IMG/VR virus record: IMGVR_UViG_3300031965_000015
Location: 6,530 to 70,529 of that record
DNA from: a virus
Taxonomy: Duplodnaviria; Caudoviricetes
Strand: one strand, 5' to 3'
DNA: 64,000 nt
Shown piece after piece: positions 2,454 to 62,685 of the stretch. The notes under the pieces were generated by a model, which did not search any database, was not told the DNA's origin, and worked only from the letters and a program-made list of their open reading frames with translations. Every line of letters begins with the position of its first letter. The first letter of the stretch is position 1. A program made the translations under genes and the position numbers.

Positions 2454-2492
2454 TTTATTCCCTCTTTTAAATCTATAAGGTTTGGGATGTTG

Positions 2493-3322: not shown

Positions 3323-3357
3323 AGTTTTTTCTGTTTATTATCAAGCAATTTGGTTGT

Positions 3358-5251: not shown

Positions 5252-5252
5252 A

Positions 5253-32158: not shown

Positions 32159-32437
32159 TCACAGTTCTACTTCTTCTGATTTTGGGGTAGGCGTGGCTTT
32201 CGCATATTCCCTGATTTTATCTAATAAGCTTTCTTTGGCATCTTCATAAGATAGATGTGAGCAGCCCCAAAATCTTATACTGTCGTATTCGGCATAGGCT
32301 CTGTATGTATATACAAGTTTTTCATTATAATAATATGTTACATTTACCTTTTCAATTTCTTTGTCTTTATTACACCCGGCGAATCCCGCTAACAAGCAGA
32401 ATGCGAGAACGATAAGGGTTAATTTATTTCGTTTCAT
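32159..32437 (-). CDS. Lipoprotein
   Basis: MKRNKLTLIVLAFCLLAGFAGC. Confidence 0.7.
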   Translation of the reverse strand: MKRNKLTLIVLAFCLLAGFAGCNKDKEIEKVNVTYYYNEKLVYTYRAYAEYDSIRFWGCSHLSYEDAKESLLDKIREYAKATPTPKSEEVEL

Positions 32438-33304: not shown

Positions 33305-33580
33305 TTAATCCACCTTTTTTAGTTTATCCATTATCTTTTTTGCTTTATCATATTCGGCAGATTTTATACTATCTATGTTATCTCCTTCTTTTATAACTAC
33401 AGTATTTTTATAATGCCTGTCAATCCAAACACCTCCGTCTCTTGTCCATACCTCTGTAATCAACATAGTTTCTTCTGTATGTTGGTTATAGTCCGCCTCT
33501 TGGACAACCACATATCTCTTACACCCTCCCGCTAACAAGCAGAATGCGAGAACGATAAGGGTTAATTTATTTCGTTTCAT
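33305..33580 (-). CDS. Lipoprotein
   Basis: MKRNKLTLIVLAFCLLAGGC. Confidence 0.7.
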   Translation of the reverse strand: MKRNKLTLIVLAFCLLAGGCKRYVVVQEADYNQHTEETMLITEVWTRDGGVWIDRHYKNTVVIKEGDNIDSIKSAEYDKAKKIMDKLKKVD

Positions 33581-34174: not shown

Positions 34175-34633
34175 CTATTTTTTCTCTGTTACTACCCCGA
34201 AATAAACTACCCTATCATTTAATGTGTCCCAGTCATTAAAAAGAATTACTTCTATAATCTGGAATTTGTTTTTGAATATCATATAGTCCTTGCCGGTTGT
34301 GTTGTTCACTGCAACCTGTACTGTTGTGTATGAGCTATCTTTGAGTGGTCCGTAATCCCCCCAGACTGTATCTATTAGTGTGCCGTTTGCATTATACTCA
34401 AGTCTTCCAGTTCTATACATTACGCTGTCTGCGGGGCTGTTGGCGTTCCCTACAAGGAATAATTGGGGAAGTGATTCATATCCTATCCATAGAATGTAAT
34501 CTGAACTATCTCCTCCTGCATCTGAGTAGTATAATGAATCTATGATAGTAACTTCTTTCCCCTTGATGGTTGTCTGCTGTGCTTCTACCTGGATAACGAA
34601 TATCAAAAGTATAAATAAAATTAGGTTTTTCAT
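34175..34633 (-). CDS. Secreted protein (SPI signal, Gln at +1)
   Basis: MKNLILFILLIFVIQVEA|QQ. Confidence 0.7.
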   Translation of the reverse strand: MKNLILFILLIFVIQVEAQQTTIKGKEVTIIDSLYYSDAGGDSSDYILWIGYESLPQLFLVGNANSPADSVMYRTGRLEYNANGTLIDTVWGDYGPLKDSSYTTVQVAVNNTTGKDYMIFKNKFQIIEVILFNDWDTLNDRVVYFGVVTEKK

Positions 34634-47152: not shown

Positions 47153-47989
47153 TTAAACCTCTTTGAATTCAATCCCTGTTAAAGAGTAATCAACATATTT
47201 AACCCCCCCAAATTCTATTACTGCGTTAGGTATAATCTTTTCTACTTCCTGTGCGACTACACCTCTATATCTTTTTGGTGAACCGATATAATTAAATTCA
47301 TAAATATTAAATCCGTTTTCAGTTCCTACCTTATTAATATTTTCTTTAAGTCTGATATCCGACCCTATGGCCGCTCCCGCAAGTTTTGATCCACCGCCTA
47401 TAAGTGTGCCTATCCCTGGTATAAGCCCCGCTATATCTCCGATACCACTAAAGAGGTCTTCCAAAAACCCCGGGGCCTGATCCTTCTGCATCTGGAGATA
47501 TTGGTTTTTGAAATCTATATCTGAAAGCAATCCAAGTTGTTTCAGTTCGTTAAAGAAGTTCTGCATATCAACGTTGCTTGCTGCTCCTGTTGTAGCGAAT
47601 TTTCTATCATTCGCATTTCCCATCAAACCAAGTTTGCCTTTTGCTTTGCTTGTCTTGAGTTGTCCAAGTGCATTCAGTTTATTTTTATTTATTTCGGTTG
47701 TCCCGCCTGATATTATTTCGTTTAAAGGCGATCCGCCTGTTATGCCCTGACTCGCTAATCGAGAGGTTGTACCTTTCCCAAAATCCGCAATGTCCTCTTT
47801 TGCACTTCTGTTTATTTCTCCTTCGTAATTCCCGAATATTTCATCAAGGAAAGATGATTGATCTTCATAAGAAAATTCATCTTCGTAATTATCAAAGCGG
47901 TTCTCTATTGTGGGATCGAGGTTTGATACTTTGTTATAGGGACTATTTTTAGTCGCTTCTTTTATCCATTCTCCCAGATTTAATGCCAT
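47153..47989 (-). CDS. Pilot/ejection-like protein with C-terminal peptidase S74 (intramolecular chaperone) domain
   Basis: G/A-rich helix followed by SDIRLKENI...YEFNY...RGVVAQEVEKIIPNAV...VDYS. Confidence 0.8.
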   Translation of the reverse strand: MALNLGEWIKEATKNSPYNKVSNLDPTIENRFDNYEDEFSYEDQSSFLDEIFGNYEGEINRSAKEDIADFGKGTTSRLASQGITGGSPLNEIISGGTTEINKNKLNALGQLKTSKAKGKLGLMGNANDRKFATTGAASNVDMQNFFNELKQLGLLSDIDFKNQYLQMQKDQAPGFLEDLFSGIGDIAGLIPGIGTLIGGGSKLAGAAIGSDIRLKENINKVGTENGFNIYEFNYIGSPKRYRGVVAQEVEKIIPNAVIEFGGVKYVDYSLTGIEFKEV

Positions 47990-48005: not shown

Positions 48006-48254
48006 TTAAATTTCTTCCCAATAGATAATATCGTCTATTGCGTTTTTTTTCTGTATCATATACACACCGTTAATCTTTTCTGTCAATGTAAATGTTCCGT
48101 CTGCTTGTCTTATCTTAAACTTTGCTCCTTCTGGAACTGTGCTAATCTGTGGAAGCTGTGTTACTATTTTTCCTGTTAATGATTCAATAACTTTATATAG
48201 TTCATCTATTTCTTGTTCAAGTCCCGAAAGTTGATATTTTCCTTTTCGTGCCAT
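48006..48254 (-). CDS. Hypothetical virion protein
   Basis: ORF track. Confidence 0.55.
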   Translation of the reverse strand: MARKGKYQLSGLEQEIDELYKVIESLTGKIVTQLPQISTVPEGAKFKIRQADGTFTLTEKINGVYMIQKKNAIDDIIYWEEI

Positions 48255-48602
48255 TTAATTGTGTTTGCCTAATATTACTGGTTTCGTTAAAATCCTAAAA
48301 AGAGAAATTTCACAAGTATCATTTACACTTCCTGATAGTTGGGGATAGAAGTCAATGCAGGTAATTCCGTTTGGTAATTTTCTGAATATCCTTCTTTTAT
48401 TTTTATCCAATGTTATTGCCGGTGTTTGTTCCCATTCCATTTCATTAGTTCTTTTGTAAAATATTATTACTGATAAATTAGTATCTATGTTATATACGCA
48501 TTCTAAAAATCCTAAGTTTATCCTTTCTAACTTTTGAAATTCTTCCCTGCTTTGAAATTCAGCAAAGTTAATTTGTATAGAAATCGGGTTACCATTATCC
48601 AT
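48255..48602 (-). CDS. Hypothetical virion protein
   Basis: ORF track. Confidence 0.55.
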   Translation of the reverse strand: MDNGNPISIQINFAEFQSREEFQKLERINLGFLECVYNIDTNLSVIIFYKRTNEMEWEQTPAITLDKNKRRIFRKLPNGITCIDFYPQLSGSVNDTCEISLFRILTKPVILGKHN

Positions 48603-49134
48603 TCTTTTCTTCTATCTCGGTATAAGGCTTATCTCTTTTAGGAATATCTTTTGTTTCTTCAAGATGAACGTGAAGATTGTTTTCTAAATTATAACCACCA
48701 AACTTTTTTATGTATTCACTTATTTGTGTCCCAAAAGCATCTGAATTATCCTTGCCTGCAAGAAACTGGTTCACCCCCCCAAAACCTTTCAAGTGTGCCC
48801 CTGCAACTAAACCTGATTCTGTTATTAAAATATTATTAACGGTTGTGCCAATATATTTACCGTAATTTTGTTTTGCTCTTTTTAATAAGTCTGCAATGTG
48901 ATTCTTAAATATCTCGTCTTGTAACTCAGGGCTTTTAAGAAACGTTGTTTCGGCAATCATCTTTTTGGCTTCCCTATTCTTAGGTTTCCATCCATTTATA
49001 GAATATCCCAAATCCCATAAACGTGGTTTGCCAAATTGCCACCTACCAAGAAAACCAAGAGTATTTTTTATATTATATTTATTCCCTGATTCTCTTGCAC
49101 CCAAATCATTTGCGAAATCATTAAAATTTTTCAT
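48595..49134 (-). CDS. Lysozyme-fold muralytic enzyme (endolysin / lytic transglycosylase)
   Basis: LGARESG...LGRWQFG...AGAHLKGFGGV. Confidence 0.75.
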   Translation of the reverse strand: MKNFNDFANDLGARESGNKYNIKNTLGFLGRWQFGKPRLWDLGYSINGWKPKNREAKKMIAETTFLKSPELQDEIFKNHIADLLKRAKQNYGKYIGTTVNNILITESGLVAGAHLKGFGGVNQFLAGKDNSDAFGTQISEYIKKFGGYNLENNLHVHLEETKDIPKRDKPYTEIEEKNG

Positions 49135-49135
49135 T

Positions 49136-49978
49136 CTATGCTACCTTATTACTTTTCTTAAAATTATCTACTCCCCATAACGGTTGTAGGTTAGTATAAT
49201 GGAACGCTTTCTTTTGTTCTTCAAGATTAAATAAATTAAAATAATCTAATGGCAAGATATGGTCTATTGTCCATTTGTCTTTACCGAATCCATAATTGCT
49301 CCAATTCATACCTTCGGTAAATTGTAATTCAAGATGTATTTTTAATTGGTCTATAGAACAGCCAACCAAGTTTATTACGTTTGTATATTTTATTCCCTTT
49401 TTTAATCTCACAATAATTTTGTAGAACCTATGCCTTAAAGAATTTTTTAGTTTTGATTTTGTGGGCATATTCTTTCTCCATCGTTTTCTCGTCTTTCTTA
49501 TTTTGTCTATATTACTGACTCTCCACAAAGCATTCTTTGTTTTCCATTCCTCAGTAGAACGTTTCTTTTTATTATGGGCGGCTATTTTCCCTTTATTCGC
49601 TTCATAATATTTTGCCCATTTTTCTTTAATCTTATCTGGATGTCTCAGGGCATATTTCTTTGTGTCTCTGAGCCCAATTTCTTTAGACTTTTTACGTTTT
49701 TTACATACTTTACATCCCCCAGTTCTCCCAGACCCAGTTGTTACCTTAAAAAACTCGTCTAAAGGCTTAACCTTTCCACAAATCTTACAAATTTTATGAC
49801 TATCATCAACAAAGTAACATTTCCCACAAGATTTGACTATCCCCCTTTTAAGATTATTCAGCATTACCACCTTCTCCCCTCCGCAATCACATTTACACAA
49901 AACTTTCTTAGATGTTTGCCCACAGGGTGACTTATGCCCCTTTACTTCTTTAAGTATGGTTAATTTATAATATTTCAT
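49136..49978 (-). CDS. HNH-type endonuclease (mosaic)
   Basis: CKCDCG..KSCG; KICKICGKVKPLDEF; MNWSNYG..WTIDHILPL..HYTNLQPLW. Confidence 0.8.
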   Translation of the reverse strand: MKYYKLTILKEVKGHKSPCGQTSKKVLCKCDCGGEKVVMLNNLKRGIVKSCGKCYFVDDSHKICKICGKVKPLDEFFKVTTGSGRTGGCKVCKKRKKSKEIGLRDTKKYALRHPDKIKEKWAKYYEANKGKIAAHNKKKRSTEEWKTKNALWRVSNIDKIRKTRKRWRKNMPTKSKLKNSLRHRFYKIIVRLKKGIKYTNVINLVGCSIDQLKIHLELQFTEGMNWSNYGFGKDKWTIDHILPLDYFNLFNLEEQKKAFHYTNLQPLWGVDNFKKSNKVA

Positions 49979-50242: not shown

Positions 50243-50611
50243 TCACTTCACCAATATGAATATTATAGTTGACACAATTAACCCCGATATAAAACCAAAA
50301 TAGAATGTATCATAAAATGGCTTTACTAAGGATTCTATTCTTTGCTCCTGCAAAGTCTTTAGCCTATTCCATTCTAATTCTTTTCTTTCATAATCAGAGA
50401 TTATATCATCGTTGAGTCTTACTTCCTCACTAAGAAGTTTAACGCCTTCCCTCTTATATTTCAGTTCTGTTAATAGTGTACTAATTAGATATAGTTCTAA
50501 CCGGTTGAACGAATCTTGATGTATCTGCCCGTCCCAACTCATTGAGTCTTGCCCGGATAATTGTATAGTAAACACTATCATCAGAAGTACTGTCAATTTT
50601 AGATAGTTCAT
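50243..50611 (-). CDS. Spanin-like partner (signal peptide, coiled coil, C-terminal TM)
   Basis: ATG at 50611; overlaps the upstream ORF by 131 nt in a different frame. Confidence 0.5.
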   Translation of the reverse strand: MNYLKLTVLLMIVFTIQLSGQDSMSWDGQIHQDSFNRLELYLISTLLTELKYKREGVKLLSEEVRLNDDIISDYERKELEWNRLKTLQEQRIESLVKPFYDTFYFGFISGLIVSTIIFILVK

Positions 50612-50834
50612 AAATGTAATTGTTATAGTTTTTTTCTTGTAGTTCACGGATAATTTTTACCGTGTCTGCTTTTAATTTCTGGAAGTTAGTTATGCTGTCA
50701 AGTTTAGAGATTATTTCTTTTTTGCTCTTATCATATTCTGATTTAGTCAACGATTCTTCGGACTTAAAGAATGAATTGTAAATCAATAAAACCAGTATAA
50801 TTAAGCATATAATAAAAAGAAAATTGTCTTTCAC
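50481..50834 (-). CDS. i-spanin (Rz)-like protein
   Basis: GTG start at 50834; N-terminal TM plus coiled coil. Confidence 0.5.
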   Translation of the reverse strand: MKDNFLFIICLIILVLLIYNSFFKSEESLTKSEYDKSKKEIISKLDSITNFQKLKADTVKIIRELQEKNYNNYIYELSKIDSTSDDSVYYTIIRARLNELGRADTSRFVQPVRTISN

Positions 50835-51163
50835 ACAACCACCGATAAAATTATGACTATATAAGTTACCCAACTTAGTATCTCGATCGGATAGTATAGG
50901 TCATTCATTCCGCCTTCTTTTTTATGTACCAGTTTGTCCATTAAAAAGTGAAGGTTCATAAAAGGAATTAATAAAACCCAGTATGAATAATGAGCAAATA
51001 AATAAAACTTTGTGTAGTCTCTTTCTTTTTTTGTTATTGTCTGATACCAGATTTCAATATCAGGTGACCAACTTAGAATGAAAGCCGTAGCAATAAATAT
51101 CCAGTTAGGATATATTAAGTATGCCACGATTGAACCTGCTGCAGAATGATTCAAACTTGTCAT
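50831..51163 (-). CDS. Membrane metal-dependent hydrolase (YdjM/DUF457-like)
   Basis: H...G, SPD, H, HFLMD pattern within TM helices. Confidence 0.55.
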   Translation of the reverse strand: MTSLNHSAAGSIVAYLIYPNWIFIATAFILSWSPDIEIWYQTITKKERDYTKFYLFAHYSYWVLLIPFMNLHFLMDKLVHKKEGGMNDLYYPIEILSWVTYIVIILSVVV

Positions 51164-51378
51164 TGTTCTTTCTTCGTGAGCATCTCTGTTTTCTTATCAG
51201 AACCACGACTTGAACCAAAGAAATAACCCACTACTGTAGCGAATGAACCGATTAAAGCCCCCACTTCTAACTGTACATCTTGACCCTTTGTAATTTTATA
51301 AATGATAACTGCAAAGAATCCCGATACGACTATACCGGCAAGGATATACATATAGATTTCTTTTGTTTTATCCTGCAT
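51160..51378 (-). CDS. Holin-like 2-TM protein
   Basis: VGYFFGSSRGSDKK. Confidence 0.65.
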   Translation of the reverse strand: MQDKTKEIYMYILAGIVVSGFFAVIIYKITKGQDVQLEVGALIGSFATVVGYFFGSSRGSDKKTEMLTKKEQ

Positions 51379-51470
51379 TTTTTTCTCCTGTTAAATAAAT
51401 AATAAAATTGCCAGTAAGGCAATTAGTAATAAAGTATAAATTTCATTAACTGTATTTTGTTTCTTGGCGG

Positions 51471-51695
51471 TCATTGACTGCCTCCTGCTTTTACTACTTC
51501 AGTATCTATCTTCTTATTTTCTTTCCATTCTTTTAACCATTCGGCATTGTCAGGAACGGCTTCACGATAATCTAAGTACCTGTCAAAAAAGAAATATCCT
51601 GCTACTATAAACAGGACACAAAAAACAAAGATTGTCTTTGCTCTTAACGAAAGGTCTGCTACAATCTGCCATATACCTGAAAGAAATTTCATCAA
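51471..51695 (-). CDS. Membrane protein
   Basis: One TM segment. Confidence 0.55.
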   Translation of the reverse strand: MMKFLSGIWQIVADLSLRAKTIFVFCVLFIVAGYFFFDRYLDYREAVPDNAEWLKEWKENKKIDTEVVKAGGSQ

Positions 51696-51865
51696 TCACC
51701 ATTCTTAATTTTAGTACCGACCTTTCCAAAGTAGAATGATAAAACACTGACAAAGCAAATCTTAAAGACTTCTTCCTTTGTCACTACATACAATACTCCT
51801 GTTAATACTATCGAGATTATGTAGAGTATGTGTATGGGTTCGAGTTTGTCTCTGAGATTTCCCAA
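51692..51865 (-). CDS. Holin-like 2-TM peptide (57 aa, TTG start; not in ORF track)
   Basis: IHILYIISIVLTGVLYVV...CFVSVLSFYFGK. Confidence 0.5.
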   Translation of the reverse strand: MGNLRDKLEPIHILYIISIVLTGVLYVVTKEEVFKICFVSVLSFYFGKVGTKIKNGD

Positions 51866-51867
51866 TA

Positions 51868-52308
51868 CTATTTATCATTAAGTTTACTGAATTTATCTTC
51901 ATATTTTTTATCGAGCTTATCTATTTTATCATCTATAAGCAATACCATAAAAAAGAAGACTATACCGCCAATAATAAGTGCTAATGAAGTACCAAGTGCA
52001 ATCCCTACATCATTGCCGAGCCAGTCATATCTGTACATTCCTTCTTGCTTCGTCCAATGTCCTAAGAGTGCAGTAGCACCAATTATCAGCATCAGTACAC
52101 CACCTAACTGGCATAACTGATAAACAAATGCACCGTATCTGTTTTTGAATACGCCCCTTAAAAGGGGAACAATATATTTAACTATCATTTTATATCTTCC
52201 TTTAATACTTGATATTCCAAACATACCTGCTCCTATCATTATTCCTTGATGTTGGAATAAAAGATAAAGAGCATAGGCTAATAAAAATGTGCTTAGTGTT
52301 GATATCAA
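51868..52308 (-). CDS. 3-TM membrane protein with coiled-coil tail
   Basis: Hydrophobicity. Confidence 0.6.
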   Translation of the reverse strand: MISTLSTFLLAYALYLLFQHQGIMIGAGMFGISSIKGRYKMIVKYIVPLLRGVFKNRYGAFVYQLCQLGGVLMLIIGATALLGHWTKQEGMYRYDWLGNDVGIALGTSLALIIGGIVFFFMVLLIDDKIDKLDKKYEDKFSKLNDK

Positions 52309-52661
52309 ACCTTATCCTTTAACAAATATTTTATTGTAGGATGTAAAACAGCCAGGATTAATAATCCTATTTGTCCATAAGAAAGAATCATTGCATTGTC
52401 GTGATCGGCTTCTGTTCCTTTATAATTAATATAAATAGCAATTAACCCTACAATACGATATATAATTAAATAAAAAGATATAACTTTTATATAAGGACTA
52501 TCAGTTAGTTTCCAAACTAATATTGCAATCAATAAACCTTGAAGCATTAACGACAAATCGCTTACTAACCATCCCGTGTTTTCTGGTACTAAAGCAACAA
52601 ACCAAGTTGGAATAAATATGACAATGCTAAGTATGAAAATATTTCTAATTGTACTTTGCAT
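52305..52661 (-). CDS. 4-TM membrane protein
   Basis: Hydrophobicity. Confidence 0.6.
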   Translation of the reverse strand: MQSTIRNIFILSIVIFIPTWFVALVPENTGWLVSDLSLMLQGLLIAILVWKLTDSPYIKVISFYLIIYRIVGLIAIYINYKGTEADHDNAMILSYGQIGLLILAVLHPTIKYLLKDKV

Positions 52662-52846
52662 TATACGTGAGGTATTGGTTTAGGTCTTTTTACCATCTTC
52701 TCTGTAATGTACTCAAGCCAATCCCCGGCTTCTGATTCTGATAAATCTTCAATATCATTATTAGCTTCTTCGGGATTGTCTAAGCTCTCGTTGAGTATCT
52801 CCTCAATAGAGACTTTTATTGCTAATGCTTTTTCACAGTTTGTCAT
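52661..52846 (-). CDS. Acidic hypothetical protein
   Basis: ORF track. Confidence 0.55.
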   Translation of the reverse strand: MTNCEKALAIKVSIEEILNESLDNPEEANNDIEDLSESEAGDWLEYITEKMVKRPKPIPHV

Positions 52847-52851
52847 TTTAA

Positions 52852-53247
52852 CTATCCTTTCTTTAATAATTTATAAATTGTCGGCAATGGCATAGGTAAA
52901 AAATAATAATATTCATGGTTAGCTACTCTAAAAATTACGTGCAAAAACCAATTCCTTATATACCAAAATACATAAATTGATAAAGCCCCATCAAGTAAGA
53001 TATTATTAAAAGGAGTTAATAAGAATAAAAATTCGGCTCTTGCGATAAACATTCCGTAAATCAGTACGACTACAAAAGCATTGTAGATAACGTGAAAGGA
53101 GTCACCTACTTTTGTTAGAATATTATTCTGATCAGTTTGCCAGAACATAAACTTCCTGAACCATTCAGCTTGCCAGTCTCCCCTGTTAATAAGTAGTTCA
53201 CAATGATTCCAAGCTGATAGAATTGCAGCTAAAATTATTAGTATCAT
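52852..53247 (-). CDS. Membrane protein
   Basis: Hydrophobicity. Confidence 0.55.
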   Translation of the reverse strand: MILIILAAILSAWNHCELLINRGDWQAEWFRKFMFWQTDQNNILTKVGDSFHVIYNAFVVVLIYGMFIARAEFLFLLTPFNNILLDGALSIYVFWYIRNWFLHVIFRVANHEYYYFLPMPLPTIYKLLKKG

Positions 53248-53432
53248 TGACTTTCTAATTCCTCTATTTCTTTGTGAATTTTATTTATTGCCTTCATTAG
53301 TTCATTAAGTAAATCAGTATCAAAATTACCATTAACCTTTTTACCAACTTCCGGGTTATAACCAATCCGTGATGCGGTCTTTTCAAGATCGTTTAACAAG
53401 TCACGTAAATACTCTTTATATCTTAAAGTCAT
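53244..53432 (-). CDS. Hypothetical protein
   Basis: ORF track. Confidence 0.55.
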   Translation of the reverse strand: MTLRYKEYLRDLLNDLEKTASRIGYNPEVGKKVNGNFDTDLLNELMKAINKIHKEIEELESQ

Positions 53433-53613
53433 TTATACTCCTTATTTGAACCAAAAAATGTTTTTTATCACGAAATAAGCAATTATACCCAAGATAATTA
53501 CTATAACTATTGCTATGATTAAATATTTCATTCTTTATCCTTACTTACTCTGTACTGGTATATCATTACAGATAGACCAGCGAATAAGAATAAAATTATT
53601 TGCACGGTTAAGC

Positions 53614-53847
53614 TCATTTCTTTTTCAGTTCCTTTATCCTTTTTCCTTTCTCCTCTCTCATAGCATAAAGCAGTTTTAACCTTTGTTCAATCTCATATCC
53701 TGCTGATTGAAGTTTAGTTATGTCGGCTTCATTTTGCTGATACTCTTTAATCTCTTTTTGGTAGAGACTATCTCTGCTTAAAAGGCTGTCCTGTGCATTA
53801 ACAGTTATAAATAAAAATGGTATTATGAATAAAAGTTTTTTAATCAT
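53614..53847 (-). CDS. Secreted coiled-coil protein (SPI, Gln at +1); position resembles a fibre chaperone
   Basis: MIKKLLFIIPFLFITVNA|QD. Confidence 0.6.
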   Translation of the reverse strand: MIKKLLFIIPFLFITVNAQDSLLSRDSLYQKEIKEYQQNEADITKLQSAGYEIEQRLKLLYAMREEKGKRIKELKKK

Positions 53848-55171
53848 TTGTGGCTTTCGCTTGTACGTAATAAACTGTTCCGTTTACTCTCACTGCAATG
53901 GTTACATCAGGTAAAGTTAAAGTTGTACTGCTAACAATCCCTGTCCCTTCTGTATAAAAACTTGGGATAGTATTACCTGCGGATAAATCGGTTGAATAAT
54001 ATACTACCGTATTAGCCCCCCCTGTACGGGATGCATTAACGGCATCAAAGCCAGAACCAATAATACGATAAATCCCGAATGAACCCCCGCTTCCTAAATT
54101 AACATAATCAACCCCAACATCGAGTATTACATTGTTGTCATTAGCCAATCCTACTCCTCCGCCACCCGCTATAAAATAGTTGTTGCCATAACTAAGTTTT
54201 GACCCGGAAGCATTGCTTAAGGTTAAAGACTCATTATCTGTATCACCATAAATGAGATCAAAATATCCTCTATCCCATCTGAATGTTGAAGAACCCACTT
54301 CATTATCAGCAACTTGAGCCGTATCTGGGACAACACTCCCTGTAAAAAAAACATTTTTTAATCTTGCATTCAATCCACTGCTGGAACCAAAATGGATTTC
54401 GTCTTGGGCATTTATTCTAAGTATCTCCTGACCCGAACCTGCGACACTCCAACCATATATATAACCTGTATTGTTAGTATTGAAACCAAGTGCTGTCGTA
54501 TCGTCAATGTTTATGCTATTTATCCCATATTGGGGTGCAGTAAATCTAATCCAGGTACTATTGTCTCTCTTTTGGATGTTAAAATTATCAGCCGATATAT
54601 TAACAGTAACGTCAGACGTATCTCTGTAAACAAGCCACGAAATTGGTCTAATACCCACTGCTCCGGTTGAGTCAATAAACTCAACATACCCCTCAATAAG
54701 TGTTTTCTCCTGGAAGTAATTATTCTCCATTGAAATATAATGTTTAACCTCATCCCCATTCGAGTCGTCTATATTATATCCCCACTTGGTAATAAAATTT
54801 CTTGAACCATCTACCGAATTATCAAACTCCTGCGTTCTCATAAGTATATTAGCCGTACCTGTTGTATGCTTTGGGGATACTTTCCATATATCAACAGCAT
54901 CCCCTATAGTCCCCGTAGAATAATATATGCCATCAAATGGAGATGAGGCACTTGCATCTCCCAAGTCAAGGTTCTCATCATCTGCAAGAGACTGACTTAC
55001 CCTGTTAAGATAATCATTAGTGTTAAGTATTGAAGGAGTAAGCGAATCTACTTTAGCTAAAAGAGAATCTATCTGCCCGCTTCTGTAATTTAGTGTGTCT
55101 GAACTCTGAGCCAATAAATAAAACGGCATCAGAATTATAAACAAAATAAGTTTCTTCATTTTTATCCTCAT
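53840..55171 (-). CDS. Tail fibre/spike-like beta-rich protein with signal peptide
   Basis: MKKLILFIILMPFYLLA|QS; G/S/N-rich; C-terminal IAVRVNGTVYYV. Confidence 0.65.
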   Translation of the reverse strand: MRIKMKKLILFIILMPFYLLAQSSDTLNYRSGQIDSLLAKVDSLTPSILNTNDYLNRVSQSLADDENLDLGDASASSPFDGIYYSTGTIGDAVDIWKVSPKHTTGTANILMRTQEFDNSVDGSRNFITKWGYNIDDSNGDEVKHYISMENNYFQEKTLIEGYVEFIDSTGAVGIRPISWLVYRDTSDVTVNISADNFNIQKRDNSTWIRFTAPQYGINSINIDDTTALGFNTNNTGYIYGWSVAGSGQEILRINAQDEIHFGSSSGLNARLKNVFFTGSVVPDTAQVADNEVGSSTFRWDRGYFDLIYGDTDNESLTLSNASGSKLSYGNNYFIAGGGGVGLANDNNVILDVGVDYVNLGSGGSFGIYRIIGSGFDAVNASRTGGANTVVYYSTDLSAGNTIPSFYTEGTGIVSSTTLTLPDVTIAVRVNGTVYYVQAKATND

Positions 55172-55379
55172 TAAAAGAAATTGGTACTAATAAAATTTTA
55201 CCTTCTAAATCGTAAAGAGTATCATAATCAGGTGCTGTTTCTAAAAGAGTATTGAAACCGTCAGGTGGAGTAAAATGATACGGTTCATCCCAAAACCACC
55301 CAGGCAAGAAAGGATTATCTTTATCCTGTGCAAATGATATAGACGTTAAACAAATGAATATTAAAAGTATTTTTTTCAT
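55053..55379 (-). CDS. Secreted protein (SPI, Gln at +1)
   Basis: MKKILLIFICLTSISFA|QD. Confidence 0.6.
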   Translation of the reverse strand: MKKILLIFICLTSISFAQDKDNPFLPGWFWDEPYHFTPPDGFNTLLETAPDYDTLYDLEGKILLVPISFNEDKNEETYFVYNSDAVLFIGSEFRHTKLQKRADRFSFS

Positions 55380-58300
55380 TATGGTGTTGTATAATAAATT
55401 CTTAACGTTGTTATTTGTGATACTGAGGCAAATGCGAAATCATAAGGTCGTCTCTGGATATTAGAAGCTGAACCATTGTCGTCTATTCTAAATCCTATTG
55501 CTTCATTACTAAACCCAGCGTAACTGTCAAGAACTTCCTGTACTATATCCTTTAAATCAATAGGTATTCTGTATCCCGTATTACTTGACCACGTCTCGGT
55601 TATTGTTCCTGTCTCTACAGCCGTTGTTAATGCTCTGCCTTCTGCTTGTGAATATCCTGCCGTTCCTGAAGAAAATGTTAAAACATTAGCGGTATCTAAT
55701 CCTTGTATTGATAGAGGCACATTACCGGAACGGGTATTATAGCTTGTCATATCAACCCACGCACCAGTAATCGTTGCTCCTGCGGGTATAGTTATTCCCG
55801 TAAATCTTAAAAATAAAGTTGTAGCAACAGAAAGACTTGTAGCATTTCCAAGATAGACGTGTTCCAATGTTCCTGTATACATAGACGTACCATTATGCCA
55901 CGCATCGTCAGAACCTTGGCTGATAGAAACTACTACAGAGTCACTTCCCGATACCTGTCCTAATGTTTCAGATACCTCTGCACTTCTTACATAGGCTGTA
56001 TCGTTATTTAACGATACTCTGAAGTAATGCGTATCTTCCGTCAAAGGATTGAATGTAATAGTAAACGCTACATTACTGGAGTCACTTAATGGGCTTACAT
56101 CTGCTGCTACAGAATCAGTATAAGTATCAGGCGAAGTACCATGTAAACCATAAATAGTGGTTGTTATACCTTTAACATTTACTGTACCCGATAGTTCAAT
56201 TGTAGCAATATCTAAAGCAGTTATAGTAACGTCACTTGTATCATCAATAAATACAGGAGTATAATTAGGGTTTGCACTCAATGAACTAAATGCTCCTATT
56301 GTTGGGTTACCTGAGCTTCTTACATTACCGTTGAAATCAGCTAAGTGTCCATTGCCTAATAAAGTTACAGATGTTCCTGCATTTATTGCAGGAGAGGTTG
56401 GTAGTATATTCAATCCCAATCCTGTTGTTGTTGATGAGTCTTGAAATAAAGGATTCGCTACAATATCATTAACCCCTGTTGTATAGCTCTGAGAATTATA
56501 ATTAGTATTACCAAAGGTTAAGTTATAATTATAAGCAGAACCATCATCGGCTCCTCCCTGATATAAACCAATTACTCCAAAAGCTACTATATTATTTTTA
56601 ACAACAACATTATTCTGTCCGGATGGTCTTATTCCCGCTCCACAATTAAAAATAGTATTAAAAACAATTTTATTATCAATGCTTCTTGAACCGATAGGTG
56701 CATAAATTCCAACTTGGGAATCAAAAATAATATTGTTATATATTTCACACCGTTTGGCTGCGTAAATATTTATCCCGGCTGCTGCATCAATAGTGTTATC
56801 CAAAGCATTATAAATAATATTATTCCTCACAATTACACTATCGCACTCCCATTCAGTAACAACACCCGGAGGAGTAATCGTTCCGTTTTCAATGGGTATA
56901 TCTAAAATAATTCCGTGTCCATCTCCGGTCTTACCGGTTCCAAAATTACTGATAATATTGTTCTCAATAATTACATTATCCCATCCGTGAGTCTGTATTA
57001 CATTAACACCGTTCAAGCTTGATGTAGGTATTGTTGAGGTTGTAAATTGTCCGTTCTGAAGAAATCCAACCGAATCTATGATGTTACCGGATATTATACT
57101 TTTATCTGCAAGTCCGTATCTCCAACTCATAGCAGTTATACCTATTGCCTCTGCTTCAATATTATCGAAAGCATTATCTGATATGGTAAAATTGTAAAAA
57201 CCTACTTTTGCCGGATGAAGGAAGTCAGGGTCACGATAAGCATTTACACCAAAGGTCATCCCATCAAACCTGTTATCTGTAATAGTTACATCTCTTGCAA
57301 CACCTTCCTGCCCAAAAGTTGTTCCTGCTGTACCCGTACCAAGTTGATGAATGGCTGCATCTGAAGACCTCCAAAAGAAGAAATCAATAGCTCTCGCTGC
57401 ACCCCATCCATCTGTAGTTGGGGCTCCGTCTAAATCATAGAAATAGTTATTTGTAAAAGTTAAATTATGTGCATCATTATGACTGTTATTATAATTAAGA
57501 ACAACCATTATTTGTATTCTGTTATTGCCCGTAAAATTACAACTGTCCACAGTCAAATAAGCGGGGTCAAGTGCAAGTATAGTACCTCCTCTTAAATTAT
57601 AGGTTTGTAGATTTGTACCATAAGTATCAAAGTCACAATTATTTATTTCAATGTTCTGGCATCTTTGCCCCAACCAGATTGTCCCTGTATTATAATTACC
57701 GGATGTATTCCAGACTAAATCCTGTAAATTAAGATTCTCAAAAGTTACGTATTCTACCCCGGCAGAAACATTTATAATTTTATTTAAAAGATTATTCGCT
57801 GTTAAAATTGGTTTGTTACCCGTACCATAAGAAGTAACCACTAAAGACTGGGTGGGTATTCCTCCCTGAGTGATGTTCAGTTGTTCTCCTGTCCACGTTC
57901 CGCCTCTTGCAAAAGCAATGTAAGGCACTCCTAACGTACTTCTGTTTGCCTGAGCAATAGCCCAAGCTCTTGCCATTGTCTCTACGGCACTTGAAGGTGA
58001 ATCACCCAAAAAATTATCATTCCCGTTTGGTGAAACATAAATAACGTTATTATATGCTATAGCAGGGTCTTGAGTAAATGCACCTGCTATATTGGAATAA
58101 ACTGAAGCCACACTATCCGGTGACCAGTTTCTTATCCTATAATTATATAATGTTGAAGCTGTCAATCCCGAATCATTATAGCTTGTCTCACTTGCAGAGA
58201 TCACATCTATTGCACTAAAAGCACCCGTACTTCCTGTTCTTCGTTCAATCTCAACCCATTGTAATGGCGTTTCACTTATTTGTGACCACGCTAAGCCTAT

Positions 58301-59335
58301 TTCCAAAGGGTCTGTTGAAGTAGTTGCTACTAAATTAGAAGGAGGATTAGGAATTATTATATCATCAGTTGTATCTGCTGTTGTGAAAAATACGGGAGGA
58401 GTAAAAGGAGAAAAATTACTATCACTTAATGAACGGAACACAAACGAATAAGTTGTGTTGCCTATTAAGCCAGAAAATATAAATGTAATCCTCGGAGGGT
58501 CATTAGTAGTAACCTGAGTGTCTATGGCAGTATACTCGGTTGCACTTATCTGACTTTCAACTCTTTGGTAGCTTATGACACTATCAGCATATTGATTTGC
58601 CTGTATGGTAATGGAAACATACGGTGTATCATTATCGGCAAAACCGGAAATATAGTCTGGTGCGATTAAAACAGAGTCCTCGCCTGATGTCTGAATAATA
58701 AGCTCATCTACAATCAATCTTAATGTATCTACCCTTAAATTAACTTGTTCAATTAACCAGTAAACAGAATCTAAATCCGTGCTGCCAGGGTCTACTTGTC
58801 CCGTAAGATTTACTATAGCAATTTTCCGCCAATATACTTCATCTCCGCCTCCCGGTGGTGAATTAGTATTCGTACCAAGACATATCCAGGTACTATTATT
58901 ATATTCTATTACATCGTGAATAAGATATGTAGAATCAGCACTCCACGTACCTCTGCCTCTGGTACGTGTATTTATATCTGCAAGATGAATTTCAAGAGAA
59001 TCTTCAACTCTTACAAGTGAATCACCTATCATTGTAGGAGTATTTCTTATAGTCCAATTCCCGGATATTGATAATAAACCATCGCCATCTACTAAAGGTG
59101 GTTCATATTCGTTTATTTCTTGTAACCTGTCAAAAGGTAGAATAAAAGCAGTGAGTGAATCGCTTACTATATCACCCACTTCAGACGAATCTAAGCCGGA
59201 ACCAACAGCACCAAAAGCTCCCGTTCTTGTACTGTCCTGAAAATCTACCATCCCTCTTATTTGATCTGATCTTATATTCTGTGAATAAGAATATCCAGTT
59301 AATAATATTAATGCAAGAAGTATTTTATTTATCAT
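55379..59335 (-). CDS. Tailspike/depolymerase-like protein: signal peptide, CBM5/12-like, FN3, right-handed beta-helix, C-terminal beta-sandwich
   Basis: RGTWSADSTY..DVIEYN; PNPPSNLVA..YNDSGLTASTLYNYRI; IYVSPNGND; repeated NNI(I)YN; LRFTGITIPAGATI. Confidence 0.78.
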   Translation of the reverse strand: MINKILLALILLTGYSYSQNIRSDQIRGMVDFQDSTRTGAFGAVGSGLDSSEVGDIVSDSLTAFILPFDRLQEINEYEPPLVDGDGLLSISGNWTIRNTPTMIGDSLVRVEDSLEIHLADINTRTRGRGTWSADSTYLIHDVIEYNNSTWICLGTNTNSPPGGGDEVYWRKIAIVNLTGQVDPGSTDLDSVYWLIEQVNLRVDTLRLIVDELIIQTSGEDSVLIAPDYISGFADNDTPYVSITIQANQYADSVISYQRVESQISATEYTAIDTQVTTNDPPRITFIFSGLIGNTTYSFVFRSLSDSNFSPFTPPVFFTTADTTDDIIIPNPPSNLVATTSTDPLEIGLAWSQISETPLQWVEIERRTGSTGAFSAIDVISASETSYNDSGLTASTLYNYRIRNWSPDSVASVYSNIAGAFTQDPAIAYNNVIYVSPNGNDNFLGDSPSSAVETMARAWAIAQANRSTLGVPYIAFARGGTWTGEQLNITQGGIPTQSLVVTSYGTGNKPILTANNLLNKIINVSAGVEYVTFENLNLQDLVWNTSGNYNTGTIWLGQRCQNIEINNCDFDTYGTNLQTYNLRGGTILALDPAYLTVDSCNFTGNNRIQIMVVLNYNNSHNDAHNLTFTNNYFYDLDGAPTTDGWGAARAIDFFFWRSSDAAIHQLGTGTAGTTFGQEGVARDVTITDNRFDGMTFGVNAYRDPDFLHPAKVGFYNFTISDNAFDNIEAEAIGITAMSWRYGLADKSIISGNIIDSVGFLQNGQFTTSTIPTSSLNGVNVIQTHGWDNVIIENNIISNFGTGKTGDGHGIILDIPIENGTITPPGVVTEWECDSVIVRNNIIYNALDNTIDAAAGINIYAAKRCEIYNNIIFDSQVGIYAPIGSRSIDNKIVFNTIFNCGAGIRPSGQNNVVVKNNIVAFGVIGLYQGGADDGSAYNYNLTFGNTNYNSQSYTTGVNDIVANPLFQDSSTTTGLGLNILPTSPAINAGTSVTLLGNGHLADFNGNVRSSGNPTIGAFSSLSANPNYTPVFIDDTSDVTITALDIATIELSGTVNVKGITTTIYGLHGTSPDTYTDSVAADVSPLSDSSNVAFTITFNPLTEDTHYFRVSLNNDTAYVRSAEVSETLGQVSGSDSVVVSISQGSDDAWHNGTSMYTGTLEHVYLGNATSLSVATTLFLRFTGITIPAGATITGAWVDMTSYNTRSGNVPLSIQGLDTANVLTFSSGTAGYSQAEGRALTTAVETGTITETWSSNTGYRIPIDLKDIVQEVLDSYAGFSNEAIGFRIDDNGSASNIQRRPYDFAFASVSQITTLRIYYTTP

Positions 59336-60198
59336 CGTGCCGACCTCGCCAGTTCATACCATAAATCGTCTGATGAATCATAATAAAGTGTTATTGAATC
59401 TCCATTACCCATTGCGAAGTCTATGCTCCCTTCTAATAATATTTCTGTGTTATGCTTAATTGTAAACACATCTTGGACATCATTTGCAATAATCAGTGTT
59501 ATTGTCTGCCCGTCTGCAGCACTTGTAAAATCTGTTACCTCCGGTGTCTCTACTCCATTATCAATTATACTTACTTTCCTGTATGCACTTACATCTACTG
59601 TCTGGCTTCCTGATGCCCAGGGAGAGATTTCTAAGGCGGGATATTTAACTGTATAAAAAGAATTATCCCCTGTAAATGAATTATCTCCGGTAATTGTATT
59701 GTTCCCTGCTGTGCTTACTTTTGAATCAATAGAATCTTTTATTAGTGAATGAGTAATCCCGTCAATTGTTTGCCCTGAACTAAAAGTAATATCTCCCGTC
59801 ATTGTCCCGCCATACTTGGCTAATTTTGTATCAATAGAATCTTTTACAAGTGTATGGACTATCCCGTCAATGGTTAAAGCTGGAGAGAATTTTGTCTGCA
59901 GCAAGGTTTCGTTCTGAATATCTGTCCCTGATATGCCTAAATTTTTAACATCGTTACTGTCAATGGTTTCATCAAGGATTTCTATTGTGGTTATGATTCC
60001 AGTTCCGAGTGTTGCGAATAAAGAATCCTGGAGTAGTTGCATCGTAGCTTTATGAGAGTGCCAAGCTCCTGCATAATATTGTGATACTAAAAATAAAGTT
60101 GTGGATGGTAAAGAATCTGTTGCCGTCTGATTGCTTATCTGTGCTTTCGTCTGGGACGAAATAATTAAGAGAATAAAAAATAAAATTACTTTTTTCAT
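59332..60198 (-). CDS. Proximal tail fibre-like protein with signal peptide
   Basis: MKKVILFFILLIISSQTKA|QI; KYGGTMTGDITF; IDGIxHxLxKDSID repeats. Confidence 0.65.
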   Translation of the reverse strand: MKKVILFFILLIISSQTKAQISNQTATDSLPSTTLFLVSQYYAGAWHSHKATMQLLQDSLFATLGTGIITTIEILDETIDSNDVKNLGISGTDIQNETLLQTKFSPALTIDGIVHTLVKDSIDTKLAKYGGTMTGDITFSSGQTIDGITHSLIKDSIDSKVSTAGNNTITGDNSFTGDNSFYTVKYPALEISPWASGSQTVDVSAYRKVSIIDNGVETPEVTDFTSAADGQTITLIIANDVQDVFTIKHNTEILLEGSIDFAMGNGDSITLYYDSSDDLWYELARSAR

Positions 60199-62685
60199 TT
60201 ATGTGCCTTCATATGGGATTTTGGTTGTTCCGCCTTCTTCATATATGTAATCGCTCCAGTCTTCATTGGTTAAATATTTATTGTAATCAATCTCTGCATC
60301 TATCGAATAAATATTCCCCAGTGTGTCCATAAAGAATAATCTTGCACTATAGCCTATCCTGTAAATAAGAGGAAAGATATATTTTGCTTCTTCGATTGGT
60401 TCTTTTCCTACAAATAAAAATTCCTGTTTTGTTGTCTCGTTGTAAATTCTTAACCTGTAAGTGTTGTATTTGTCTCTTACTGCGTGAAGGTCTGATTTCC
60501 CTACAATGGCTAAATATAAATCCCTGATTGTATCTTTGAGTATTCCTACTGCCCTGAATCCGTTCAGGTCCAGATAATAAATATCATCACTCCCGCACCA
60601 TCTTATAAATCCGCCTGTGTTTACTATGCTCTCTCTTGATAAACAATTAACCCCGAATATTGGTTCTCTTGTAAATGCGTTTGTATGAGGGTCAATGCTC
60701 TCTACTGATTTATCTTTTAATACAAGAAGATCTCCGTTAGGCAGGAATTCCATTCCTACTGCTTTTGAATTATCAAACCTTTCTAATTCCCTGTAATTAC
60801 TGAAAGTTGATATATCGTACATAAAAGCACCTGCCCCGCTTAAATGAGAAACAAGTATATAGTTCTCATATCTTTTATCTACATAAGGGTTTAAATAGTA
60901 TGCCCTGCCTCTGTAAGTTTTCGCCTGATCCCATCCTTTGACAACATTAAACGAAGGTTGGTAACCCATATTGTCTTTCATTTCTGCACCATCAACCGTG
61001 TCGGGTGTAAATGCAAATCTTGTTTTTATTGATACGAGATCAGCCCAGAAATATGCTCCCCCAGTATGAACGTGCCTTATCTCAAGACTTAATGGATCAT
61101 CACCACTATTTAATTGCATGGTATATTTTGTGAAAGTGCCACTAATAGTAAATACTTTTATTTCTCCATATGTGGTAGCCCCCCTGAAATTAACATAGAT
61201 TAACCCACCACCCTTCAAATAAACATCAACTGTATAAAGCGTGTTGCTTCTCAGCCCAGTAATAGGATATTTTATACCCGATACTGTCCCCGAATAAGAT
61301 GTTACAGATGCTTCGCCATACTTTAATGAGTAAGTCCCGCCTGCTGCAAATGTATTGTCTGATGATAATGCACCATGTATAGAATGAGTTACTTCCCATC
61401 CTGTTGTTGCATTGGCTTCACTTGCTATGCTTGCTGCATTTGAATCTGTATGCAGTTCAATAGACGAATCAAAATATAATCTTCCGTTTTCATCAATCTT
61501 CCATTGGTTTTTACTCCCTGATTCGTTCAGGTAAACATCGTATTCATTAATCTTATAGAACACACTATTATCTTCTGATTTATATAAAATCAGTTTTGTA
61601 ATTCTTGGGTTAATCTTGGCAAGGTTTATATATGGATATGCTTCAACATCCTGACTGCCGTCAACCTGAATTAAGTTCTCTGCTACTAATTGCTCTGCAT
61701 AACCGTCTATCAAACCTGTCAGCCTGAAATAATAAGTCCCTGCGGTTAGTGTGCCTGTTACCGGGAGTAAATCTATTCCATAAGCACCGGATGTTCTTAG
61801 AAAACTTAAATCAAGTATTATACCGTCTGTCTCTGAAAATGCCGTTATTGCTGCTGCATCTAAATCAGCATGGACACTTGCAAAATCAATATTATCCAAT
61901 AGTAAAAATCTATTCCTGTACCCAACTGCCAGTCCCGGTCTGTTATCCTCTCCTCCAAATCCAATTCTTAAATCTTTAATTATTTTATGGAATACTACAT
62001 CGTTCCATTCTGCATTATAAAGCTCAGCCATATATGCAGTCTCAATCCAGTTTTTTGTGATGATCACTACATCGTTTATGCTCCATAAACTATTATAATA
62101 AGTGTGATTGATTCTTAGTTCTCCTGCATCAACCTTGCACGTAATTATTTTGGCATACTGATCTTTAGTTTTGTTATAAATTGTATATCCTATTAAGGAA
62201 TCATCCCCCAGTCCATGTGCAGAATCTCCGAATATTTTAATTACATTTGTATATGGTGCTGAAGCACTACCAGTAAGTTTTGTAATGATTGTTTTGTTTA
62301 TCCATTCCCACTGTCCGACATAAGGTCTAACCCAAACCTGAATCATTTTTTGTGTATCGGCTACGCTTGATCCGCTTAATGCTGATAATGTTCCTTTACC
62401 TATTAAGCAGAACATTTCTCCATCTACATTTGCATTTGTATCGAAGAATAAATCAAAGTTTAAATATGATGGGCTTCCTATTGTTGAAAATAAAACATCA
62501 TCATCTGCATCTGGTGTAGCATATCTTAAAGTATATCCGGGACGAAGTACCATCTTGCCCGGCTTTTCGTGAGCATGTAAGTTCAGTATTCTCCTTGCGG
62601 TTTTTCTACCGGGGTTCTTTACGTTACTCGACATTCCGAGGGCTTCGCTAAAATCTATTCCTATCCAGTCCTGTTTGGGTGGCAT
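60199..62685 (-). CDS. Tail nozzle/stabilisation protein (P22 gp10-like) with inserted beta-sandwich
   Basis: 828 aa following the adaptor; N-terminal NLHAHEKPGKMVLRPGY; C-terminal beta-propeller-like repeats. Confidence 0.65.
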   Translation of the reverse strand: MPPKQDWIGIDFSEALGMSSNVKNPGRKTARRILNLHAHEKPGKMVLRPGYTLRYATPDADDDVLFSTIGSPSYLNFDLFFDTNANVDGEMFCLIGKGTLSALSGSSVADTQKMIQVWVRPYVGQWEWINKTIITKLTGSASAPYTNVIKIFGDSAHGLGDDSLIGYTIYNKTKDQYAKIITCKVDAGELRINHTYYNSLWSINDVVIITKNWIETAYMAELYNAEWNDVVFHKIIKDLRIGFGGEDNRPGLAVGYRNRFLLLDNIDFASVHADLDAAAITAFSETDGIILDLSFLRTSGAYGIDLLPVTGTLTAGTYYFRLTGLIDGYAEQLVAENLIQVDGSQDVEAYPYINLAKINPRITKLILYKSEDNSVFYKINEYDVYLNESGSKNQWKIDENGRLYFDSSIELHTDSNAASIASEANATTGWEVTHSIHGALSSDNTFAAGGTYSLKYGEASVTSYSGTVSGIKYPITGLRSNTLYTVDVYLKGGGLIYVNFRGATTYGEIKVFTISGTFTKYTMQLNSGDDPLSLEIRHVHTGGAYFWADLVSIKTRFAFTPDTVDGAEMKDNMGYQPSFNVVKGWDQAKTYRGRAYYLNPYVDKRYENYILVSHLSGAGAFMYDISTFSNYRELERFDNSKAVGMEFLPNGDLLVLKDKSVESIDPHTNAFTREPIFGVNCLSRESIVNTGGFIRWCGSDDIYYLDLNGFRAVGILKDTIRDLYLAIVGKSDLHAVRDKYNTYRLRIYNETTKQEFLFVGKEPIEEAKYIFPLIYRIGYSARLFFMDTLGNIYSIDAEIDYNKYLTNEDWSDYIYEEGGTTKIPYEGT

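Follow-up and report, generated by a model that had tools for sequence, protein, structure and literature searches.

Consecutive tail-locus genes with host-type export signals in a podophage of Ignavibacteria-type bacteria

We analysed a stretch of 64,000 nucleotides from a tailed phage ("the window" below; bases 6530-70529 of the single 70,529-bp contig IMGVR_UViG_3300031965_000015). Because the contig has a 127-bp repeat at both ends, it represents a closed, complete phage genome, and the window holds most of this 70.5-kb genome, which is that of a podophage. Directly after the gene for a nozzle-like tail protein lie five consecutive genes on the minus strand (positions 53614 to 60198 of the window) whose products begin with signal peptides (SPs) for the Sec pathway, and in each of them cleavage by signal peptidase I (SPI) is predicted to expose a glutamine (Gln, Q) at position +1. 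From the sequences, we consider it highly probable that the export of these five proteins is real and has been selected for. Our best explanation is that the genes form a late-operon module that encodes a short fibre, a large spike of the beta-helix glycanase type, a third fibre-like protein, and two small partners, and that these would be exported to the periplasm and join the virion only at lysis. We give this whole chain, from export through docking on virions, a probability of about 45%. The docking step has much less support than export does.

No spacers separate the five genes from the nozzle gene or from one another; the junctions are TAA/ATG, ATGA, TAATG, and an 8-nt overlap. The first encodes a preprotein of 288 amino acids (aa; 59332..60198) with the cleavage site TKA/QISNQ, and its start codon abuts the stop codon of the nozzle gene. 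It is followed by preproteins of 1318 aa (55379..59335; SYS/QNIRSDQ), 108 aa (55053..55379; SFA/QD), 443 aa (53840..55171; LLA/QSSD; translation probably begins at the second ATG, at 55159), and 77 aa (53614..53847; VNA/QD; the mature part is charged and looks helical). The 108-aa protein may help the 1318-aa protein to assemble, as its partner. Its gene shares about 107 nt (55053-55171) with the 443-aa gene in a different frame, and both signal peptides are intact. Two more minus-strand genes in the window have signals of this kind: a 152-aa preprotein (34175..34633; VEA/QQ) is encoded just after a giant 3805-aa gene, and a product of about 122 aa, counted from an inner methionine (50243..50611 within the open reading frame [ORF] 50243-50647; LSG/QD), has a C-terminal transmembrane (TM) segment and would be spanin-like, judging by its position. 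A first-pass annotation of the window had quoted the N-termini of these seven proteins, and we found all of them on the minus strand where it had placed them. Outside the window, at 5226-5762 of the genome (minus strand), we noticed by eye a 178-aa protein with an SP-like N-terminus (IKS/QT), which is encoded between the portal region and the scaffold and capsid genes.

Signals were called with a home-made script that looks for a charged n-region, a hydrophobic core (h-region), small residues at -3 and -1 (c-region), and a hydrophilic continuation, so all the cleavage sites are predictions. It flagged 7 of the 116 minus-strand ORFs of at least 45 aa. The five tail-locus genes make up an unbroken run of flagged ORFs, and a run of five arose in 0 of 100,000 permutations of the labels. 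Gln is at the predicted +1 position in all 7 flagged proteins, as well as in the one found by eye, and the tripartite structure with small residues at -3 and -1 is apparent in all five tail-locus genes, both to the script and on direct reading. The script reported no signal on the 828-aa nozzle-like protein, the 302-aa and 209-aa adaptor-like proteins, the 278-aa needle-like protein, the 356-aa protein, or the giant 3805-aa protein, which agrees with the earlier statement that nozzle, adaptor, and ejection proteins lack them. Since the predictor is heuristic, the hydrophobic N-termini might stay uncleaved and serve as anchors in the membrane or as helices for docking, in which case the proteins would remain on the cytoplasmic side. 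We think this very improbable: a positive n-region and a short h-region are typical of cleaved signals, and without cleavage there is no rationale for Gln at the predicted +1 position in every flagged case.

The arrangement of the genes also bears on an idea from the first-pass annotation, namely that these proteins are surface adhesins of lysogens, expressed from the prophage independently of lytic growth. One relative of this phage lies within a 2.17-Mb bacterial contig, so the phage family can be temperate. However, there is no intergenic room for a promoter of their own, given that the first start codon abuts the nozzle stop codon, and the G+C content of the genes matches that of the adjoining structural genes. 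(A scan for sigma-70 promoters and terminators across 47-64 kb gave counts at or near the level of shuffled sequence, with a consensus that is inappropriate for this host.) With their translation coupled to that of a late gene, the nozzle gene, it seems unlikely that a prophage would express them on their own. Furthermore, we found no outer-membrane sorting signal in the five proteins: there was no C-terminal sorting domain for type IX secretion (Por_Secre_tail or the type B domain) in Pfam (E<=0.01) or NCBIfam (E<=0.1), and the script found no lipobox with Cys at +1. With neither signal found, the periplasm is the default destination. So the lysogen version is weakened to the point where we give it very little credence.

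What the signals look like is best understood from the host. Searches with an alignment of 23 relatives of the nozzle protein retrieved 12 viral, 36 metagenome, and 7 genome loci (we refer to individual related loci by labels such as L004). Four of the 7 genome loci are in metagenome-assembled genomes (MAGs) of Ignavibacteriales or Ignavibacteriaceae, one of them being the locus inside the 2.17-Mb contig; the other three bear the names Sphingobacteriaceae, Pacearchaeota, and Dehalococcoidaceae. These relatives link the host to an Ignavibacteria-type lineage (Bacteroidota sensu GTDB). In 400 kb of the 2.17-Mb Ignavibacteriales contig, 60 of 301 ORFs have SPI-like signals, and in 22 of these 60 a strict cleavage site is followed by Gln, as compared to a Gln background of 2.9%; many more read PQ. 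Bochtler et al. (PMC5837995) give a Q-value of 77% for Ignavibacterium album. As the host lineage obeys the Bacteroidetes Q-rule, the phage's signals copy the export grammar of the host, and the link that had been drawn between Gln at +1 and a Bacteroidota-related host holds up. After SPI cleavage, a Gln at +1 can cyclise to pyroglutamate. We found no match to PF05096 (the plant-type glutaminyl cyclase) in the host MAG; the Bacteroidetes enzyme is of another type, so we draw nothing from this.

Large exported proteins of this kind are not a general feature of phages of Bacteroidota. Across three control phages, crAss001 (first 50 kb), B40-8, and Flavobacterium phage 11b, 0 of 157 ORFs encode an SP+Gln protein of at least 250 aa, and the script flags only small lysis-type membrane proteins and lipoproteins. 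The tail fibres and spikes of the Bacteroides phage crAss001 (gp22-gp26) have no signals. The closest precedent is in phages of Porphyromonas gingivalis, which contain five Q-rule signal-peptide genes of unknown function that are read as envelope modifiers (Matrishin et al. 2023, PMC10367356). As in our phage, these are SPI signals that expose Gln, and the same text interprets them as an adaptation to the Sec and glutaminyl cyclase (QC) system of Bacteroidota. It does not describe those five genes as being of the fibre or spike type, whereas here large appendage-type proteins from the tail locus bear the signals, and this is repeated throughout a family of phages.

A second and independent indication that the proteins see the periplasm comes from glycosylation sites. 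The general O-glycosylation system of Bacteroidota recognises the sequon D-(S/T)-(A/I/L/V/M/T) (PMC8550257). We compared the number of sequons with the expectation from composition shuffles. The mature parts of the 8 SP proteins of this phage contain 38 sequons where 15.1 are expected, a 2.5-fold enrichment (in the 152-aa protein alone, 4 versus 0.72), while all of its other ORFs contain 43 where 39.3 are expected. The same pattern is seen for the SP+Gln proteins of relatives (105 observed, 42.2 expected) against their other proteins (217 observed, 215.2 expected), and in the host, for SP+Gln proteins (97 observed, 44.2 expected) against unflagged proteins (213 observed, 176.3 expected). This is an enrichment of sites and no more. 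That the enrichment is common to the exported proteins of the host also argues against uncleaved anchors.

We then asked whether the signals are conserved, as the first-pass annotation had recommended. For 21 distinct loci in which the sequence continues for 2.5 kb or more after the nozzle gene, we considered proteins of at least 200 aa that are encoded between the nozzle and needle genes, and about half of these related phages have large SP+Gln proteins at the same place after the nozzle. In L004, L015, L016, L067, and L073, every such protein has a signal; in our phage, an HNH endonuclease is the sole protein of this size without one. The interval of L009 encodes an SP protein of 1174 aa and one unknown protein, and for L012, L014, and L070, inspection by eye revealed SP-like N-termini that had escaped the script. 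In nine loci (L002, L003, L005, L008, L013, L017, L020, L050, and L075), the large proteins in the interval all lack signals, although three SP-like proteins are encoded upstream of the nozzle gene in L008. No proteins of at least 200 aa are encoded there in L064 and L074.

Where the exported proteins are related to each other, their mature N-termini are conserved from exactly the Gln: QNIRSDQ in our phage corresponds to QNIRIDQ in L004 and QNVNISQ in L008, and L014, L015, and L016 share QT.YI.LSSLPSSS. Some are recognisable as fibres or spikes. The SP proteins of L015 (737 aa) and L016 (762 aa) match phrog_11541 (1e-50), phrog_5240 "tail fiber" (1e-31), and phrog_19519 (5e-28); by tblastn, 224 phage records have tail-fibre or SGNH-hydrolase genes that match the L015 protein; and the SP protein of L009 matches a PHROG of tailspikes (4.5e-11). 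In this L009 protein, the part that comes right after the cleavage site (residues 25-95) can be aligned to residues 3-73 of a signal-less protein of L005 (34% identity, E 1e-9), so one N-terminal domain exists both with and without a signal at the same post-nozzle locus. These fibre matches and this shared domain support the assignment of the genes to the tail-appendage type. L008 encodes as two genes what is fused in our 1318-aa protein, namely the shaft (227 aa) and the beta-helix (690 aa), and each piece has its own SP-like N-terminus, one with a canonical site and then Q and the other reading SYP/Q. In L014 (13707-16547) and its homologues in L059 and L070, which are kin of the SP fibre of L015 and L016, the n-region is longer and contains an SRRLI motif; by eye, it resembles a twin-arginine (Tat) signal. 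These three homologues also point to export and not to a membrane anchor. In the head module, the 178-aa SP protein has a homologue in L004, and L006 and L013 have similar SP+Gln proteins at the same place.

The presence of large exported proteins is complementary to the presence of ordinary fibres. In L002, L003, L005, L017, L020, and L050, there are full-length signal-less proteins of ~310 aa and ~481 aa along with a fibre of 248-485 aa, also signal-less, and SP+Q proteins of at least 200 aa are found in 0 of these 6 loci. Our phage, L015, L016, L018, and L067 retain only the N-terminal domains of the first and third of these, as separate stub genes (115-116 aa in place of the ~310-aa protein and 70-84 aa in place of the 248-485-aa fibre), and 5 of 5 of these stub-bearing loci have large SP+Q proteins (the L018 contig shows the 115-aa stub only). 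In our phage, the stubs are at 48255..48602 (115 aa) and 48006..48254 (82 aa), both on the minus strand. L008 and L012 are intermediate, with short versions of the fibres and with large SP-like proteins that lie elsewhere or are visible by eye. In a quick tree of the nozzle proteins, the SP state is spread over several clades, including deep ones (L073 and L009), and the long-fibre state is in 2-3 clades only, so there are few independent contrasts. We also tried a "split fibre" idea, in which the mature N-termini of the SP proteins of L014, L015, and L016 correspond to the unit after the glycine linker of the long fibres. It looked so by eye; hhalign of the SP-protein N-termini against the distal part of the long fibres gave a probability of 0.05, which rules it out.

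In the 1318-aa protein, a fibre-like N-terminal part includes a 45-aa fibre repeat (127-173) and is followed by an fn3-like stretch (~330-400), a beta-helix glycanase-like domain (~430-950), and C-terminal domains. The 45-aa repeat is widespread. A HMMER search with residues 1-330 against 1.84 billion representatives yielded 311 matches, nearly all of them to this repeat only, so it taught us nothing about the first 120 residues, and a comparison with PDB sequences gave weak fn3 matches only. A structural model of the central domain from a 6-sequence alignment (mean pLDDT 65.8, pTM 0.74) is a right-handed beta-helix. Foldseek matched it to GH136 enzymes, to the HK620, Sf6, and CBA120 TSP3 tailspikes (E 2e-6 to 1e-4), and to PL6 lyases, with TM-scores of only 0.3-0.46, which give the fold class and not the enzyme family. 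Structure prediction had been suggested as a check; for the 288-aa protein, AlphaFold2 without an alignment gave an unusable model (pLDDT 32.5). Among this phage's own proteins there is a match to phrog_5073 at 6.8e-5, and the 288-aa protein has a weak match to Pfam Phage_depo_C (residues 214-277, E 5e-5, below the curated cutoff). Its neighbours in the ESM Atlas are all viral, as are those of the 443-aa protein, and in both cases they hint weakly at fibre-type families; we regard these as leads only.

Besides the similarity in fold, the 1318-aa gene resembles those of the tailspikes in that it adjoins tail hub genes. Tailspikes of the HK620, Sf6, and CBA120 type assemble onto virions in the cytoplasm and, unlike the 1318-aa protein, have no signal peptide, and they are only 10-13% identical to it. 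Cellular proteins of the Ignavibacteriales type are much more similar over the beta-helix: P0176 is 54% identical and three proteins of 806-831 aa (P0178-P0180) are 36-38% identical. These also have SP+Q N-termini, but they lack the ~430-aa fibre-like N-terminal part and the fn3 stretch. P0176-type proteins run from SP+Gln straight into the beta-helix and end with dockerin-like repeats, which are absent from the phage protein. P0177 (1325 aa, 48% identity, SP+Gln) is a full-length homologue of the 1318-aa protein. P0176 has matches in 40 of 101 genomes from the host's order, mostly to its C-terminal domain.

Could the same genes supply both compartments? If translation sometimes began at internal start codons, signal-less copies could go into virions while the full-length copies are exported. 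There is an in-frame ATG at codon 29 of the 1318-aa gene and a TTG at codon 20 of the 443-aa gene, and the public gene call for the 443-aa protein begins at residue 20. Within the first 45 codons, however, a TTG at codon 25 is the only such start in the 108-aa gene, and the 288-aa and 77-aa genes have no in-frame ATG, GTG, or TTG, so dual isoforms cannot be general. Conservation of the mature N-terminus from the exact Gln does not fit internal starts either. We find this scheme quite implausible.

To summarise the case for export, we infer it from a signal that is adapted to the host, the conserved mature Gln, the sequons, the separate signal on each of the L008 pieces, and the twin-arginine-like n-region seen by eye. 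The sequence of events that we favour would then be as follows. Late in infection, the appendage-type preproteins would be translocated to the periplasm; SPI would cut before the Gln, which may then become pyroglutamate; the host's periplasmic O-glycosylation system would probably modify the exported proteins; and they would fold and assemble there. Particles built in the cytoplasm would lack these fibres and would meet them only once holin lesions merge the two compartments, and docking on the tail would occur at that moment. The endolysin of this phage has no signal, which fits a large-hole holin. The signals, their clustering, their conservation in relatives, the homology to appendages, and the sequon signature are all observed. 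Of the earlier proposal that exported appendages are attached at or after lysis, then, the export, the appendage type, and the passage through the periplasm are supported, and the attachment is a proposal.

Several points weigh against mounting on virions. We found no Sec-exported virion proteins, fibres, or spikes of tailed phages in the full-text literature (subscription-only papers and supplements lay outside this search). The contrast between stubs and long fibres covers just ~2-3 independent clades in the quick tree, the stubs end right after the conserved domain with no obvious docking surface, and hhalign showed no similarity between the N-termini of the SP proteins and the distal part of the long fibres. 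In the first 19 related loci (L002-L020), we found no full-length homologues of the five proteins, and the 288-aa protein has no homologues of similar length, the only lengths searched. The nozzle has an insert that, by eye, looks like a carbohydrate-binding module (CBM), and this could be the receptor binder. SP+Q proteins are also encoded outside the tail module (the 178-aa protein near the head genes and the 152-aa protein after the giant gene), so export is not specific to tails. Finally, the 54% identity of the beta-helix to cellular-type secreted proteins fits a free enzyme equally well.

Indeed, it is nearly as likely that the proteins are exported depolymerases or adhesins that act outside the virion: periplasmic or released enzymes and binders that derive from tail-spike genes. 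These would act late, on the envelope glycans of the host itself, and the particles would adsorb via the nozzle's own insert. Possible roles include destroying receptors, blocking superinfection or re-adsorption to debris, and loosening the capsule or biofilm so that progeny are released. This possibility, which we hold at clearly below even odds, accounts for the signals and the sequon enrichment, both of which point to the periplasm; for the SP+Q proteins elsewhere in the genome; and for a beta-helix that is closest to cellular secreted proteins, of a type that is matched in many genomes of the host's order. It is in keeping with the interpretation of the P. gingivalis genes as envelope modifiers (PMC10367356), and it poses no topological problem. 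On the other hand, it leaves unexplained why phages with SP-bearing proteins have lost the distal parts of their signal-less fibres, why the N-terminal domain of a fibre has been retained immediately after the cleavage site, and why translation of the genes is coupled to that of the nozzle gene.

Other systems offer partial parallels for each of these readings. In podophages of the SP6/K1-5 (gp37) and KP32 types, a short tail-bound adaptor carries exchangeable spikes with short conserved N-termini, which is like the pattern of stubs and variable SP proteins here, although all of the partners are cytoplasmic there. The pIII and pVIII proteins of filamentous phages are virion proteins that have Sec signal peptides and are assembled outside the cytoplasm, but those virions are of a wholly different type and are extruded through the envelope. 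For action outside the virion, WceF of Pantoea stewartii has a tailspike-type fold and acts outside the cytoplasm on the polysaccharide of its own producer; unlike our genes, it is chromosomal and is not in a phage tail operon (PMC7949094).

A greedy ORF call gave 121 ORFs, 100 of which are on the minus strand. PHROG and Pfam scans recognised the small and large terminase, the portal (phrog_156 at 1e-59), and, at 2228-3529 of the genome, the major capsid protein. The portals of Bcep22-like and AP1 podophages share only 22-25% identity with that of our phage. Transcription runs from the head genes to genes of 321, 209, and 302 aa and then to the 828-aa gene (60199..62685, minus strand), whose nozzle-like product lacks a signal peptide and has 24 relatives at 31-48% identity. 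That it comes after the 302-aa adaptor-like gene is in keeping with the order of genes in T7 and P22. It had no match in isolated phages (tblastn), and as a single-protein query it found no relatives among viral contigs, where alignment-based scans did find some. The CBM-like insert is at ~410-545, and this central part is variable: in nozzle relatives of 1096-1147 aa, it is replaced by ~300 aa with PF15902 (Sortilin-Vps10) and PF25852.

After the five signal-peptide genes comes a block of small membrane proteins, then the spanin-like gene, an HNH gene, an endolysin-like gene, genes of 115, 82, 278, and 356 aa, and the 3805-aa gene. By hydropathy windows, the membrane block (50831..53613, minus strand) encodes proteins of 131, 118, 146, 57, 74, 72, and 110 aa, with two small soluble proteins interspersed, and it also includes two 29-aa TM mini-ORFs in 53433-53613. 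PHROG and Pfam scans of the block gave no family match. It is presumably the holin and lysis region, and it is unusually large: at least 9 small membrane proteins in a row plus an SP+TM protein go far beyond the usual set of holins and spanins. The lysozyme/endolysin-like protein (48595..49134, minus strand, 179 aa) has no signal and matches phrog_27932 at 8.8e-13 and the endolysin family phrog_26675 at 4e-5. The endolysins of L015 and L008 are likewise signal-less. In L005 (15609-16151) and L017 (15698-16207), which belong to the clade whose fibres lack signals and whose nozzles have 1115 aa, it is the endolysin that has an N-terminus like a signal peptide or a signal-arrest-release (SAR) sequence. 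The type of lysis may be linked to the compartment in which the fibres are made.

The needle or ejection-type protein (47153..47989, minus strand, 278 aa) has no signal and ends in an S74 intramolecular-chaperone domain, as found by the same scans. The giant protein that is encoded among these ejection-type genes (34662-46079, minus strand) contains a Strawberry-notch-type helicase (AAA_34 at 4.9e-118, Helicase_C_4 at 4.1e-78) and, at 1278-1512, a stretch that is methyltransferase-like. In this it is reminiscent of DarB-like anti-restriction proteins, which are injected. There are three HNH/endonuclease VII-like genes on the minus strand, at 49136-49978 (within the lysis and tail region), 15849-16652, and 18252-18848, two of which are paralogues at 31% identity. 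Five small lipoprotein-like genes have lipoboxes (32159-32437, 33305-33580, 26384-26617, and 14558-14782 on the minus strand and 31196-31624 on the plus strand); the script flagged three of them, and two, including the one on the plus strand, were found by eye. The N-terminal 18 residues are the same in two of the five, so one may have arisen by duplication. Near the start of the window, a 327-aa multi-TM protein (666-1649, minus strand) has a weak match to Agl23/flippase-associated proteins (2.8e-5, far below the cutoff), and the adjoining gene (182-646, minus strand) encodes a protein that is weakly similar to FkbM methyltransferases. The two may be a pair that modifies surface glycans, although Pfam had little of use to offer on the 327-aa protein.

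The assembly of tailed phages is taught as a purely cytoplasmic process. Conserved appendage-type proteins with host-adapted export signals either break this rule or show a new use of spike genes. In the first case, there would be maturation in the periplasm and a final assembly step that is gated by the holin, possibly with fibres that are glycosylated and capped by pyroglutamate. In the second, tail-spike genes would have been turned repeatedly into exported envelope enzymes that replace the fibres of the virion. Either outcome would change how receptor-binding proteins are annotated in phages of Bacteroidota-type hosts, since a signal peptide is normally taken to exclude a role in the virion, and it would also affect the prediction of host range from receptor-binding proteins. 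We suggest, tentatively and at not quite even odds, that in one family of tailed phages, the receptor-binding appendages are made in another compartment of the cell than the remainder of the virion. After Sec export (perhaps Tat in one clade), the appendages would be capped with pyroglutamate, O-glycosylated, and folded in the periplasm, and they would snap onto finished particles in the seconds between holin triggering and the rupture of the envelope. If so, this would be a new assembly pathway in the Caudoviricetes and a source of glycosylated receptor-binding proteins of phages.

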